Shown here piece after piece: positions 57,621 to 64,000 of a stretch of 64,000 bases of DNA. Source of the stretch: Verrucomicrobiota bacterium (GTDB lineage Bacteria > Verrucomicrobiota > Verrucomicrobiia > Opitutales > Cerasicoccaceae); assembly GCA_039818205.1 (NCBI GenBank), contig JBCBUK010000016.1, positions 37,613 to 101,612 on the forward strand, read 5' to 3'. Every line of letters begins with the position of its first letter. Within the stretch, counting starts at the first letter, position 1. Both the position numbers and the translations under genes were made by a program. The notes below the pieces were generated by a model that did no database searches, had not been told where the DNA came from, and worked only from the letters and a program-made list of their open reading frames with translations.

Positions 57621-58954
57621 TCCTTTAGCCGTTTGTCTTGAATTTTAAGCCAGGCTTCGTGCTTCCGAGTAAAGAGCGCTTGCTGACGTTTCTGCACCTC
57701 TTGAGCAGCCTCTAATGCCTGCATTTTATTTCGCATAACGTTATCAATGGCGTTCACCATATCGTTGCTGAAATCATTATAGGTAACCATCTGCGGACGA
57801 ATCTGCGCTAGCGGATGCTCAGCAAGTTCGCGGTAAACATGAATGTGCGGATTTGGGTGGCGCTCGTAAAAGTCCTCACTGACCTCCTTTAGTGGGCTGA
57901 ACTTGAGCTGAGCCAGGCAAAGCGCCTCCATCTGCTCGGGCTGTTGAAGCCAGGATATGAACTTAAATGCCTCCTCCGGATGAGCAGCGCCCCGGGGAAT
58001 CACGAGGCAGTCGGTCTCGACCAGACTTGCCCCGTAGTCTTCCTCATCAATCGTAGGAAAAGGCGCCACGCCGTATTCAAAGTCTTTAGGGGCAAAGTTA
58101 TTGATAAAATTGTACATCCACGGGCCTTGCAGAACCATCGCAACCCGACCGCGAAAGAATGGATTCTCCGGCGAGGCAAAGACACCAGAAAGCTGACGAA
58201 AACCCATGAGCGATTCGGCTCCATAGCGCTCCGGATAACTCTCAATCCATTTCAATGCGGCAACGTTCGCATCACTTGTCGCAGTCACTCGACTATCCCC
58301 ATTCCAAATGGTGCCACCAAACCAGATGCTCCAGCTCGCACTCCACCAACCAGGTTCAACTGGCAAGTGGCCCATGGCTTGAATCTGCCCATTGTCGCCA
58401 AACTGTGTCAACTGATCGTTGTACTGCTCCAATTCCGCAATCGTCCTCGGCGGTCGGTCCGGGTCCAATCCCGCCTGTCGGAACATCTGCTTGTTCCAAT
58501 GCAGAGCATTCGTTCCGGGTGTAGCCGGGAGAGCCCAAACGCGATCATAGACCACCAGTTGACGCCAAACCGACGGCAGGTAGCCCTGCTCGCCCAACGA
58601 TGACTCCGACAATTGCACGTCCAGTGGAGTTAACGCACCGTTCGATGCGAACACCGGCAAATTTGAAGACCAGATACCAGCCACATCGGGCGGATTTCCA
58701 CCTGCTGTCGCGAGCATGAGTTTGCGGTCAATATTGCTGACGGACAAAAACTTTACATATACCTGATCCTGAGACCGATTATATTCGGCTACTAGGTCCT
58801 CCATGGCTTCACGCTCAAAGCCTGTCCACTTCTCCCAATACTCAACCTCGATTCGACCGTCCTCGCGCACCTTATCATCTTCGTCCCCAATCGTGAGGAG
58901 GAACAGAACGCCAATCGCGATGATGGATACAGATACCGTGCTGAGGGGAGACAT
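57605..58954 (-). CDS. Sugar ABC transporter substrate-binding protein
   Basis: N-terminal anchor; GGNPPDV, WNKQMFRQAGLDP.PP.T..EL and F.GRVAM..QGPW motifs. Confidence 0.9.
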   Translation of the reverse strand: MSPLSTVSVSIIAIGVLFLLTIGDEDDKVREDGRIEVEYWEKWTGFEREAMEDLVAEYNRSQDQVYVKFLSVSNIDRKLMLATAGGNPPDVAGIWSSNLPVFASNGALTPLDVQLSESSLGEQGYLPSVWRQLVVYDRVWALPATPGTNALHWNKQMFRQAGLDPDRPPRTIAELEQYNDQLTQFGDNGQIQAMGHLPVEPGWWSASWSIWFGGTIWNGDSRVTATSDANVAALKWIESYPERYGAESLMGFRQLSGVFASPENPFFRGRVAMVLQGPWMYNFINNFAPKDFEYGVAPFPTIDEEDYGASLVETDCLVIPRGAAHPEEAFKFISWLQQPEQMEALCLAQLKFSPLKEVSEDFYERHPNPHIHVYRELAEHPLAQIRPQMVTYNDFSNDMVNAIDNVMRNKMQALEAAQEVQKRQQALFTRKHEAWLKIQDKRLKEWDQE

Positions 58955-59407: not shown

Positions 59408-60310
59408 ATGAAAATAGGCATCAATCGACTAACGATATGTATTGCTGCATTCTCGCTTGCAGCCTCCCTCCAAGCTCAACGAGAAGGTCCCCTTCCACCC
59501 TCAAGTGTGAGCAATCTATACAACGGCTACAACGCCCAGCTATCCGACAACTTCAATGGCAGTGACGTCAACTGGTCCAAATGGACTCGACGGCAAACTA
59601 ACATCTCGTCAAAAGGCTCCCTGCAAGACTGGCGCCTCAGCAATGTCAATGGTGGCTGGGCGCGTTTAAATGGAAAGAAAATCAACGGTAACTGGGTCGG
59701 CAACGGCCTTTGCGCTAAGCCAAACCAAGTCTACAACACCGGATTTATCGTGTCTCGGTGGAAGTTTTCCGGGCAACCAAGCCACAACAGAACCATCTTC
59801 CATCCATCCATCTGGTCTGCCAATTGGAATAACGGCTACGACAGTGGAGTAATTCCGACGGGTCCTAGCTGGCTAGAGATTGACATGATGGAATATGAGT
59901 CCTGGCCGCACTACGCTCCCGCAAGCCACCTTGTTCCTCGAGTTAACGGATCAATCCCATCGGGTAGTGCGAGACCCAAAATGTATCAGCCGACTTCCAA
60001 CACCTGGTATACGGGTGTCCCTGCCAACTGGTCCGACCAGATCTGGGGACTAGAATACCACGTTAACTATATTCAAACTTGGAAATACGTTAATGGCACG
60101 TGGAACACGCACGGCCAAAAGGTTTGGACAAGCTGGCAGGTCAATTGGGATAACAATCGATATTCTCACGCAGCCAGGAAGAAGATGTATTGGATTCTTT
60201 CCAATATCACTCCGGATTGGCAACGTGCGTCATCCAACAACGTGAAAGGCGATACGTTCTTCGCGGTCAACTATTTCGAGTATTATCCTGCAAAGTCTTT
60301 GCTACCCTAA
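59408..60310 (+). CDS. Secreted GH16-like glycoside hydrolase (single domain, divergent)
   Basis: Signal peptide; LSDNFNG, HPSIWS, EIDMME (ExDxxE) and VNYFEYY motifs. Confidence 0.7.
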   Translation: MKIGINRLTICIAAFSLAASLQAQREGPLPPSSVSNLYNGYNAQLSDNFNGSDVNWSKWTRRQTNISSKGSLQDWRLSNVNGGWARLNGKKINGNWVGNGLCAKPNQVYNTGFIVSRWKFSGQPSHNRTIFHPSIWSANWNNGYDSGVIPTGPSWLEIDMMEYESWPHYAPASHLVPRVNGSIPSGSARPKMYQPTSNTWYTGVPANWSDQIWGLEYHVNYIQTWKYVNGTWNTHGQKVWTSWQVNWDNNRYSHAARKKMYWILSNITPDWQRASSNNVKGDTFFAVNYFEYYPAKSLLP

Positions 60311-60350
60311 ACGTATCTATACACTTCGTGTGCTAGCTTAACGGTTAATC

Positions 60351-60383
60351 AATACGGTTCCGGGCATAGCCCGGAACCGTATT
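60351..60383 (+). terminator. Probable terminator/stem-loop after the GH16-like gene
   Basis: Perfect 15-bp stem AATACGGTTCCGGGC/GCCCGGAACCGTATT with a 3-nt loop and a short U tract. Confidence 0.65.
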
Positions 60384-60429
60384 TGCCCATTCATTGATCC
60401 AATAAAAAACAACCCCAGTCCCTTCATCC

Positions 60430-61839
60430 ATGGTCAGCTCGAAATTGATCCTTTGCCTCCTCTCTGCTTGCTCTATTTCCTTTGTCGCCGGATACCTCTT
60501 TAAACCATCTTCTCCACCCACTGCAAAGACTTCTACATCGCAAATTGCCCACCCTATCGTTCAATCCCCAACGGTAGAGAACGAATCATTTCTAAACGAC
60601 TTTGAAGACCAATTGCCCGCCTCCTTCATCGAACTTGCCGAGGAGTTTCCGGAACTGGTCTTGAGTCAGCTCCAATACAACCAGCTGCTTCAAGGTATGA
60701 CGATAGAACTGCTGAAGACCGATCCGGCCGCGGCCGCGGACCTTCTAGATCGTTTCACCGACGAGAACACATTGCTGGGAACCCAAGAGTTAGTAATCTC
60801 GATTTGGTCGGAAGAAGACCCGGAACAGGCAATCAAATGGCTGGAAGAAAGGAAAGCACTTTACGGTGAAGAAAGATACCAAGGCTACTATAGCTATGCC
60901 CTAAACTCACTCGCGATGGTCGAACCAGACAGGGCCGTGCAATACTTTGAGGCGCTGGAACCGGGCGATCCTGCGAGGCTCGCAATTATGCAAGGCGTTA
61001 GTCAAGGCTGGGGCCAAAGCGATCCTGTAACTGGATTCCAGTGGCTTGAACAGATCGAGAGCCAACCGGATATCGAACCCTACATGGTCACCCAGGTGTA
61101 TTCAGATCTGATGATGGGCTATATGCACCTGCATCGCGAGGAGGCAGCCGCAACCATCGCCGAACTGGAGTCTACCCAACTCAAAGCTGAACTCATAAAG
61201 CCGCTCGTTCTAAAGTATGCCGACAGCGGGTTTGGTGATGCCGCCACGTTCATTCAGAACCTAGAGGACCCCGACATCCAACGAGTCGCCGCTGCCCACT
61301 TTGTCGAGATCAACGCTGCTCGATACCCAAGCGAAATGATCGATTTTGCGATCAACAACATGGATCTCGACACTGGAAAACAAGACTTTCTCAAACAAGC
61401 ATTCCTGTCCTTATCCTACACAGACTTTGACCAAGCAATCCAACAGTATGATCGACTCGAAGGCCAATCCAAAGATGCAGCCATGGAAGCGATTGCACTA
61501 TCAATGTCGCATATGAAAGGACCAGATGGAGCTGCCCACTGGGTTGCCAGCCTCAACGATCAACAAGATCGCGATACCGGATTCGCTGCCCTCGCAATGA
61601 ACGCAAGCTATGACACAACCAAGATGTTCAATTCGCTGTCTCAGATCCAAGACTCAAAAAAGCAGACGGCTACTCTTAAAGCTATCGTTGCCCAGATCCA
61701 ACCACACAAACTTTTTGACATTCAGAGAATGCTTCAAAGTGGAAATCTCGCTGGCGTCGAATCGAATCAAGTTATCGAAGACATAAATACCCGAATAAGC
61801 GATGAATACGGAGACCTACTCCTACCATCGGGCGCCTAA
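60430..61839 (+). CDS. Membrane-anchored alpha-helical repeat protein of unknown function
   Basis: N-terminal TM and repeated WSEEDPEQAIKWL / WGQSDPVTGFQWL / GPDGAAHWV units. Confidence 0.65.
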   Translation: MVSSKLILCLLSACSISFVAGYLFKPSSPPTAKTSTSQIAHPIVQSPTVENESFLNDFEDQLPASFIELAEEFPELVLSQLQYNQLLQGMTIELLKTDPAAAADLLDRFTDENTLLGTQELVISIWSEEDPEQAIKWLEERKALYGEERYQGYYSYALNSLAMVEPDRAVQYFEALEPGDPARLAIMQGVSQGWGQSDPVTGFQWLEQIESQPDIEPYMVTQVYSDLMMGYMHLHREEAAATIAELESTQLKAELIKPLVLKYADSGFGDAATFIQNLEDPDIQRVAAAHFVEINAARYPSEMIDFAINNMDLDTGKQDFLKQAFLSLSYTDFDQAIQQYDRLEGQSKDAAMEAIALSMSHMKGPDGAAHWVASLNDQQDRDTGFAALAMNASYDTTKMFNSLSQIQDSKKQTATLKAIVAQIQPHKLFDIQRMLQSGNLAGVESNQVIEDINTRISDEYGDLLLPSGA

Positions 61840-62094: not shown

Positions 62095-62606
62095 TGCTTG
62101 AACCCCACCTTTCGGCCCAGATTATTTGACTGTATTTGGCCGGTTACTGTTTGGGTTGTTTAGTTGGTTTTGTTTGAGGTTCTGGCGTAATGAGGGCGTA
62201 GCCCGATCGGAGCCGGAACCTAGGTTACTGATTTGGCAAACTGTGCTGGTGTGAGCAAGCCCAGAGAGCGGTGCGGTCTTTGATTGTTGTAGAAGCTGAG
62301 CCATTCTTTGAAGATAAACCTGGCTTCAGATAGCGTGTAGATGAGCTCGCGGCTGAGGCATTCGGCACGGAAGCGTGAGTTAAAACTTTCGACATAGCCG
62401 TTCTGCCAAGGACAACCGGGGTCGATGTAGAGCGTATTGATCTCGTTGTCGGCAAGCCAGCGTTGGATCATCTTGGCAATGAACCCTGGCCCGTTGTCGC
62501 TGCGGATATAAGCGGGTGCGCCATGCTTGGCGATGGCTGACTTGAGAACAGCGAGCACATCGTCTGCTTTGATCTCACGAGCAGCATGAATGGCGTGGCA
62601 TTAACA
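62095..62606 (-). mobile_element. IS3-family insertion sequence remnant (3' part of the orfB transposase and right end only)
   Basis: Minus frame from about 62600 reads CHAIHAAREIKADDVLAVL...IRSDNGPGF...PGCPWQNGYVESFNSR...YNNQRPHRSLG, stop at 62220. The terminus-like TGCTTGAACCCCACC at 62095 fits the 5'-TG..CA-3' IS3 end. orfA and the 5' part of orfB are absent. Confidence 0.85.
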
Positions 62607-62772
62607 GATAAAAAACACCACCACCAATCAAGACTGAAATCTTCTTTCCTTCATACAAATACCAGATTTCGTATTCACCGGAACAATTTCCTCCGCAACA
62701 TGGACAATCGTCATCATACCTCAATATCGATTGCTGTCCATCATCAGCGTGCGTGGGTTTCCGATTTTTCAT
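62575..62772 (-). pseudogene. Integron cassette 3 ORF, truncated and fused to the IS3 remnant
   Basis: ATG lies 1 nt after the GTTGAAG core site. Its last ~9 codons read IS3 sequence out of frame, and no attC follows. Confidence 0.6.
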
Positions 62773-62773
62773 T

Positions 62774-62844
62774 CTTCAACGTAAAGCGTGATCGCGTAGT
62801 GGAGGCGGAGCCGTAACGGAGTTGATCACCGCGACTTGATCTGC
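62774..62844 (-). mobile_element. attC recombination site (cassette 2), degenerate R'' box
   Basis: Minus strand: GCAGATC-AAGTC-GCGGTGATC-N30-GATCACGC-TTTAC-GTTGAAG. 5-nt spacers; the L''/L' arms pair with one extrahelical G; 71 bp. Confidence 0.8.
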
Positions 62845-63131
62845 CCCCCAGCGCCCAGTCGTGTTCTGATTGATCGAGGTATGTCCATTCGGATGTTATG
62901 ATTCTTTTCCCAGTCTAGAATAGCTTTAAGTATCCTGTCCTCTTCGTCTTTCGTCAACTCAACCCCCTTTGGTTCATTCCATTACTTTAGGTCCTCGATC
63001 CAAACCAACGCGTCATATTCCGGATTTCCTGACATTTCGACAAAGACTTCGACAACTCGATCACCATCCTTGCAAACCAGAGTAGCTGTTCGACCCGATG
63101 ACTTCCATTCAACTGTTAGATGTTCTTTCAT
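62826..63131 (-). pseudogene. Integron cassette 2 ORF with an in-frame TAA at codon 50
   Basis: MKEHLTVEWKSSGRTATLVCKDGDRVVEVFVEMSGNPEYDALVWIEDLK*WNEPKGVELTKDEEDRILKAILDWEKNHNIRMDIPRSIRTRLGAGGQIKSR*. The TAA is at 62984-62982. Not in the ORF track. Confidence 0.7.
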
Positions 63132-63141
63132 TCATTCTTTT

Positions 63142-63202
63142 GCAGAACGTAGAGCTGTCACGACGCGGGCTTGCCCGCGTTGTGACCAGCGCCTTGTTCG
63201 GT
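63142..63202 (-). mobile_element. attC recombination site (cassette 1)
   Basis: Minus strand: ACCGAAC-AAGGC-GCTGGTCAC-AACGCGGGC-AA-GCCCGCGTC-GTGACAGC-TCTAC-GTTCTGC. 61 bp, with AAC/GTT cores, 5-nt spacers and an extrahelical G. Confidence 0.9.
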
Positions 63203-63610
63203 GGTAATTTCGATTAGCTTCGCTGTTTTGCCAGTGCGATCTACTGACTTCCGAACGAAGGCACCATCAATGTCTTTCAGTCCAACGACACAAAAAGTCG
63301 CATATTCACTTTTTGGATCAGTGAATCCAAATCTTATGAATGCTTCCGTAATCTCATCGAATCCAGAATAGCCTTCTGAAACGAGAATATCTTTCAGCTT
63401 TTCCTTCAACGCCTCGAGCGAGAGCCGAAGTGGTTCTATTTTTTCGAATTCCTTTGGGCAGGGCTCTTTTGCTAGGAAATCGATAATGTATCCATTCATT
63501 CCAATGTTCCTGCATGCCTTACTGAGATGCTGTGAGACATAGCAAAGACCGCTCACAGCGTGGTGTGCGGTGCTTTGTGCTACGCTGGTTAATCTCTTCT
63601 TCGAGGGCAT
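63158..63610 (-). CDS. Integron cassette 1, hypothetical protein (150 aa)
   Basis: ATG lies 10 nt after the GTTCGGT core site; the ORF runs into and stops inside attC. AT-rich compared with the rest of the window. Confidence 0.75.
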   Translation of the reverse strand: MPSKKRLTSVAQSTAHHAVSGLCYVSQHLSKACRNIGMNGYIIDFLAKEPCPKEFEKIEPLRLSLEALKEKLKDILVSEGYSGFDEITEAFIRFGFTDPKSEYATFCVVGLKDIDGAFVRKSVDRTGKTAKLIEITTEQGAGHNAGKPAS

Positions 63611-63620
63611 TTCTATTATT

Positions 63621-63664
63621 ACCGAACAGGTTAGTATACGCGCACGATGCGATTGTTACAGGTT
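63621..63664 (-). mobile_element. Putative attI site
   Basis: Minus strand ...AACCTGTaacaatcgcatcgtgcgcgtatactAACCTGTTCGGT. The core GTTCGGT is exactly complementary to cassette 1's ACCGAAC. AACCTGT direct repeats lie 32 bp apart, and no attC-like hairpin precedes the core. Confidence 0.65.
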
Positions 63665-63961
63665 TTTCGAATGGTTTGTGTTGGGCGCATGGAACTGACC
63701 ATAAATATTCCCTAACCGACTCGGCAACACTATTTTGTGATTGTCTGTTACAATATAAACTCATTTTTAGTCCTCGGACCATCAACCGGCCCAAAATTGC
63801 CAAAAACCTCGCAATACACAGGGATTGCGGGCGATTGAGCTGGCGCGTATATCAAAACCAACAAACACAACATCAGAGATTCATTCTCAAAAACCAAAAA
63901 GGTGTACATTTGAGTACATTTAAAATTGACATTCACTCACTTGCTTACCATCCCAGAGGAT

Positions 63962-64000
63962 ATGAGCTACTACGTATCATTTCCCGATTGGATTGATCAG
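63962..64000 (+). CDS. 5' end of a divergent gene, candidate integron integrase (runs off the window)
   Basis: ATG preceded by AGAGGA and a TTGACA at 63926; reads MSYYVSFPDWIDQ... Position and orientation relative to attI match intI, but no catalytic residues lie inside the window. Confidence 0.4.
   Translation, partial: MSYYVSFPDWIDQ

Follow-up and report, generated by a model that had tools for sequence, protein, structure and literature searches.

A decayed sedentary integron at an Opitutales contig end and the dispersed, mostly intI-less copies of its attI leader

The window analysed here, the whole 64,000-nt stretch of DNA (G000:C16:37613-101612, C16 being the contig and G000 the genome), reaches the end of its contig, and the terminal part carries the remains of an integron. 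On the minus strand, a leader is followed by the core GTTCGGT, the ORF of cassette 1, attC1, cassette 2, attC2 and cassette 3, and the start of an integrase gene (intI) lies on the leader's other side, on the plus strand:

63962..64000, plus strand: first 13 codons of intI, divergent from attI; the contig ends here
63628..63890, minus strand: leader ending in attI, ~270 bp, with the last ~35 nt best conserved
63810..63829, minus strand: conserved hairpin and T-run within the leader, a terminator-like match (block identity 0.67-0.84, 14 copies)
63621..63627, minus strand: attI/cassette 1 core GTTCGGT, with the crossover G|TT at 63627/63626
63158..63610, minus strand: cassette 1 ORF, 150 aa, with its stop codon within attC1
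63142..63202, minus strand: attC1, 61 nt, R'' ACCGAAC and R' GTTCTGC
62826..63131, minus strand: cassette 2, an Imm74 immunity-protein pseudogene with an in-frame stop; its R'' ends ATC, not AAC
62774..62844, minus strand: attC2, 71 nt
62603..62780, minus strand: cassette 3, 5' part only, without attC
62095..62602, minus strand: 3' half of an IS3-family element (NF033516), cutting the array

The initial annotation had claimed integron cassette architecture here, and this identity is supported: the N-terminus of an IntI starts at 63962 in divergent orientation to the attI-like site, the genome has related attC sites elsewhere, and a search of 200 other genomes of the order found cassette 1 in none of them. 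Three cassettes had been proposed; cassette 2 has its ORF interrupted by a TAA at 62984-62982, and cassette 3 lacks an attC and is broken at 62602 by the IS3 3' half, its ORF ending within IS3 DNA. The proposed spacing of 1-10 nt between core and ORF holds, with start ATGs 10, 10 and 1 nt past the cores of cassettes 1, 2 and 3, as does the AT-richness of the cassettes (bodies of 42-45% GC versus 52.7% for the genome); a stop inside attC is found for cassette 1 and not for cassette 3. The IS3 remnant is 91.5% identical over 508 nt to a copy on C26.

The product of cassette 1 falls in a small family without a name (11 matches including itself, the closest named relative being from Pelagicoccus) and has 0 matches in Pfam, NCBIfam, PADLOC, PHROG and Atlas. 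The C-termini of the family members look like translated attC arms, and two metagenome homologues (39%) have no clear attC, as judged by eye. An intact 101-aa homologue of cassette 2, P0012, matches its first half at 92% and its second at 81%, and is an Imm74 immunity protein (PF15603 above the cut-off). A search for a longer homologue of cassette 3, in itself weak evidence, found none. Runs X2-X4 contain no more than small shares, and one depth-2 contig of run X4 spans 63399-63627 with 20 unlike letters ahead of the core, a coverage too thin to build on. Two Pfam-less ORFs (300 and 469 aa; window 59408-61839) lie between a sugar-transport block and the integron; the syntenic block stops near 58870, and these two ORFs have no close match in congeners.

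In attC1, R'' is followed by a 5-nt spacer, L'' with an extra G, L', a second 5-nt spacer and R'. The common geometry claimed for two attC sites was found, with boxes at 63202-63142 and 62844-62774, and attC2 pairs L'' with L' at 8/8 positions plus the extra G. Folding of the bottom strands bore out one site and not the other: attC1 reaches -19.2 kcal/mol (z -4.24, with 0/200 shuffles as good; top strand -15.5), and the free fold of attC2 (62777-62844) matches shuffles (z 0.55, 131/200), its canonical fold coming at a small cost (-7.0 versus an MFE of -7.6). A scan of Rfam gave two chance matches only. The leading core is complementary to the cassette's own R'' at 7/7 positions in cassette 1 and 6/7 in cassette 2, just as had been noted.

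Further attC copies in the genome and its relatives, for which the initial annotation had proposed a search, were looked for with a model, R1, built from 17 attC sites, five of them from G000; it replaced an earlier heuristic scan that was unspecific (7 matches in 2.2 Mb of shuffled DNA). R1 scored 150 candidates per genome, and its counts are lower bounds: at least 23 matches in G000, at least 18-24 in each of four congeners, and 0 in G009 among the 150 candidates scored. Covariation of the L boxes over the 17 aligned sites beats 500/500 shuffles and all slid controls. The core statistics draw on 40 sites, 25 from G000 and 15 of the 23 G003 matches (those in fetched regions); the former comprise 22 of the 23 R1 matches, a contig-end duplicate having been dropped, and three sites from the heuristic scan, with C14 and C45 being one site counted twice and C6 possibly false. 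At the 30 junctions of G000 and G003 with a known leading core, a cassette's own R'' complements 98/120 variable core positions, against a permutation mean of 45.2 and a maximum of 68 in 20,000, and 18/30 junctions are perfect at all four variable positions. That the hairpins are terminators or REP-like repeats, with core matches arising by chance, would suit an attC2 that folds no better than shuffles, but this junction statistic refutes it, and the L-box covariation, the breakpoint of the leader, the R'' matches in closed genomes and the adjoining IntI stub leave it practically no chance.

Lineage-specific cores had been suspected, and the departure from the textbook consensus proves to be a real bias: RYYYAAC fits 4/40 sites and GTTRRRY 5/40, and a G precedes the triplet in 26/40. 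R'' ends AAC in 29/40 sites and ATC in 9/40. Among the junctions of G000 and G003, four are compensated GAT/ATC pairs, all in G003, three are GTT/ATC, including that of cassette 2 in the window, and three are GAT/AAC; three further GAT/ATC junctions occur in G242 and G111. A crossover after the second base was considered, and the four GAT/ATC junctions fit G|WT, with the three GTT/ATC and three GAT/AAC junctions mismatched. Of the core, PMC2811028 and PMC4792948 describe the triplet alone as conserved, and attC x attI1 recombination tolerates a T2-to-A2 change or is raised by it (Frumerie et al., PMC2811028), so GAT/ATC cores would be expected to work. That tolerance of the second base was a laboratory result, whereas the GAT/ATC cores here are in natural cassettes, where they would matter for attC search models. 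Several cores have one-base indels at the crossover (G-TCTAC, GATTCGCC; G000:C1:91240, C5:76670, C9:210600, C14:1500 and 2050), possibly slipped recombination products.

The leader is a multi-copy element. Six copies are found in G000 and nine in the congener G003, with different cassettes behind each and mostly without intI; the other G000 copies lie on C1, C2, C5 (shortened), C9 and C39, with a partial one at the C9 end. In 15 copies the similarity stops at the G|TT crossover, and among the 14 copies other than that of the window identity to it falls from 12-14/14 at 63640-63625 to 3-7/14 at 63624-63621. Because the similarity breaks at the triplet and the intI start adjoins, we regard the site as attI. 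Over the last 38 nt, 12/14 of these copies are 82-97% identical, compared with 43-93% over the whole leader, a conservation of the attI end that is partly built in, the copies having been collected with a motif from that end. No sigma-70 promoter match was found in 63600-64000. Upstream of the intI start, window 63902-63917 holds a perfect palindrome, TGTAC-N6-GTACA, with a TTGACA hexamer, a possible regulator site. A putative LexA-box motif for Verrucomicrobia had no match near intI in G000, G005 and G036, and in G001 and G003 it gave 2-mismatch matches only, at cassette junctions.

From its ATG at 63962, the intI frame runs via a 77-nt overlap of C16 and C39 into C39. The assembly offers two continuations of the gene, C39 (a 181-aa stub) or C48 (about 63 aa), each truncated ahead of the catalytic domain. 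The C39 stub has an IntI SAM-like domain (PF13495, 2.9e-11) and scores 33 bits with TIGR02249 against a cut-off of 265, its closest named relatives being Cerasicoccus and Puniceicoccaceae records, and there intI is joined by a deletion to a truncated HAD cassette from another array. Together with the Pelagicoccus relative of cassette 1, these records make an Opitutales verrucomicrobium the likely host, a marine bacterium. Over 180 aa, the stub and the N-terminal part of the G003 IntI share 71.7% identity; the G003 gene, with one in-frame TGA of its own, likewise lies divergently before this leader. The position of intI differs among congeners and is not syntenic. In G001 an intact IntI reaches 329 bits with TIGR02249, over the cut-off, and aligns gap-free to VchIntIA 2A3V across the IntI-specific segment, so that a full-length IntI with this segment adjoins the array in G001 and does not in G000.

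No full IntI or IntI catalytic domain over the cut-off was found in the G000 assembly, and the integron is therefore non-functional as assembled. The tyrosine recombinase implied by the initial annotation is thus there in part, as an adjoining N-terminal stub, with the IntI-specific insertion and the catalytic domain missing from G000. Matches on C4 and C17 were rejected as full IntI as they skip the IntI segment, and a motif match on C10 is out of frame inside another gene. At G000:C7:95401-97676 an unrelated IntI-like N-terminal stub (123 aa) heads an array with another leader and at least three attC matches.

It is very improbable that the integron is intact and active, with intI merely missing through the contig break. 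C16 does stop 39 nt into intI, and run X1, which may be the source sample and hence not independent of the assembly, has a depth of 47 from 63854 onward versus about 20 for the cassettes, equivalent to about two copies. However, the two truncated continuations on C39 and C48 account for both copies, a profile of 17 IntI C-terminal halves found no IntI-specific segment in six frames of G000, and the genome is rated 99.97% complete.

We use the term satellite for an attI leader copy without intI. Leader matches number five in G001 (one with a full intI), three in G036 and three in G005, and attC matches follow the satellites in 3/4, 1/2 and 2/2 cases, respectively; no intI piece was found at the four G001 and two G005 satellite loci. 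To exclude assembly artefacts, five genomes of the order, each closed or near-closed, were picked for having intI, and in these an attI-core 12-mer taken from intI-linked sites has 19 matches, its reversed control 0. Eight of the 19 adjoin a full intI; upstream of the other 11, at least 3.1 kb is free of any intI piece. An exact complementary R'' lies within 500 nt of 8/11 intI-less sites, against 12/3570 for wrong 4-mers, and in G242 one satellite is followed by an array whose attC matches extend over 12 kb. In G005 one cassette, identical at 77/77 nt from the core, takes second place in the intI-linked array and first place after the attI of a satellite, and in G003 one cassette stands third and second in two arrays, these again being an intI-linked and a satellite array; both of these common-cassette cases sit at contig ends. 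Among the arrays of G000 no common cassette bodies were found beyond one assembly branch.

These sites bear directly on how the arrays were loaded. Each satellite could once have been a complete integron that was loaded in cis and then lost its intI, with no shared service in trans, an explanation that we consider unlikely. It draws on the intI remnants in G000, where C1 has an internally deleted intI, and in G036, whose satellites retain 15-17 intI codons, and on the closed genome G111, with three complete near-identical integrons whose leaders are 97-100% identical; the C7 array, on a reading of the sequence, is headed by an unrelated truncated IntI-like ORF, and multi-intI genomes are common in the order, as is intact IntI itself, which 58/251 genomes have over the cut-off. 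Against it stand the 11/11 satellite sites of the closed or near-closed genomes and the six loci of G001 and G005, all without an intI piece, as well as the same cassette in master and satellite arrays and an attI end that is far more conserved than the remaining leader. The last two features also speak for loading in trans. Loading in cis prior to decay can account for some of the pattern, some copies being decayed whole integrons, and the G003 satellites, which form a clade apart from the intI-linked leader of that genome (support 93/97, rough tree), may stem from an earlier integrase.

The copies appear to have spread by several routes, one being the whole-platform copying seen in G111, G000 C1 and G036. 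In G000, tRNA-Ser 3'-end repeats bound the C2/C14 and C1-end arrays, which are accompanied by a phage-type recombinase ORF, a label based on a reading of the sequence and a weak PF13495 match, and the same 18-mer precedes the C39 and C9-end leaders. These tRNA-Ser island arrays are at G000:C14:2041-3759, C1:625627-626949, C45, C9:211290 and C39:5111, and the same 81-nt element closes two of them. In G003, 4/8 satellites start about 90 bp past a GTAG-type palindrome with 18 copies in G003 and 0 in G000; this REP-like palindrome sits beside the satellite leaders at L045 (G003:C3:125292-128232), L043, L048 and L049. The G003 C3 satellite is flanked by inverted copies of the palindrome, in a ~5-kb stretch that is absent between the orthologous G000 genes.

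Other observations concern single sites. Behind dnaX, G005 (L052, C38) has a complete integron and G001 (L097, C25) an intI-less leader belonging to a different attI type, and in G000 the site is empty. In G005 an ORF-less cassette of ~290 bp opens the intI-linked array (L010:2870-3160) and is repeated more than 10 times in the arrays of that genome. At L073 and L095 (G036) and L131 and L132 (G111), a repeated element breaks attC at the same position each time, much as an attC-targeting IS would. At L090 (G005) and L092 (G002), a 530-aa ORF that reads as reverse-transcriptase-like lies just upstream of a satellite attI.

With a directly observed divergent intI start, G|TT breakpoint, attC boxes and core complementarity, and a leader whose copies head different arrays, the locus is a real, decayed sedentary chromosomal integron, a degenerate member of that class and not a complete integron. 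Our preferred reading, to which we give a probability of roughly 0.7, is that it is a chromosomal integron head without its catalytic half, and likely the former home platform of dispersed attI-headed arrays that its integrase would have loaded in trans. From the sequence comparisons, one integrase likely once served many scattered capture sites. By established IntI biochemistry, the cassettes would have come in as circles, by recombination between attI and their folded bottom-strand attC. The leader copies would have arisen by copying of the platform, through whole-integron duplication and on tRNA-Ser islands, followed by loss of intI, and would have gone on taking up cassettes for as long as the cell had an intact IntI. 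The decay is visible in the stop in cassette 2 and the IS3 cut in cassette 3, and the arrays are now likely frozen unless intI is re-acquired.

A broader proposal, which we make tentatively and at a little under even odds, is that of a distributed integron, in which Opitutales attI platforms are copied to sites around the chromosome as non-autonomous modules, are maintained by selection as capture sites, and receive their cassettes in trans through one integrase, from a pool with both GTT/AAC and GAT/ATC cores. The modules would lie on small tRNA-Ser islands in G000 and in REP-bounded units in G003. If this were true, many CALINs would be live satellite integrons, not relics. By itself, the locus is an ordinary decayed integron; its value is in tying the multi-copy module to a real intI, so that the module can be called attI on evidence.

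Integrons have been reported in Verrucomicrobia (Cury et al. 2016, PMC4889954), and the 11 taxon models of PMC8352920 include none for this group. Sedentary integrons of the Xanthomonas type with inactivated intI (10.1101/2025.06.18.660453, PMC4889954) are alike in their divergent intI, promoterless attC cassettes, integrase broken by deletion and IS damage in the array; they differ in that here congeners do not share a syntenic intI position and the attI leader is present in multiple copies. CALINs, mobilisation of their cassettes in trans, attG insertion, exchange between attI sites and cassettes containing a truncated attI have been described across PMC4889954, 10.1101/2025.06.18.660453, 10.1101/2022.09.11.507474, PMC9668308, PMC8352920, PMC9892861, PMC4792948, PMC2811028 and PMC12901181. 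We found no description of genome-wide multi-copy intI-less attI in the main texts of a mainly open-access literature; the per-genome supplementary tables of PMC4889954 may list such arrays. What is new here is the satellite attI organisation and the natural GWT cores.

The insertion of cassettes at attG, giving SALINs (Loot et al., 10.1101/2022.09.11.507474), is alike in its GWT core and in the dispersal of cassettes round the chromosome, but its target is a 3-nt genomic motif, whereas here a copied 130-330-bp leader heads ordered arrays; identity of the window locus with a SALIN (single attC, no attI) was rejected, two attC sites and an attI leader being present. CALINs have two or more attC sites with no complete intI close by (Cury et al. 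2016, PMC4889954), and the window has two attC sites and no IntI over the cut-off, with a recognisable intI stub adjoining. Where CALINs originate is left open by Cury et al. (2016, PMC4889954) and Loot et al. (10.1101/2022.09.11.507474). Cury et al. (PMC4889954) reported intI pseudogenes near only 5% of them and could not search for attI, which is unknown for most integrons, and mobilisation of CALINs in trans has already been proposed (Cury et al. 2016, PMC4889954; 10.1101/2025.06.18.660453). The arrays described here differ from CALINs in keeping a cognate attI, and could gain cassettes, not only lose them; if the attI of intI-less arrays still works, one genome would offer several points of capture, and each of these would have a first-position slot of its own.
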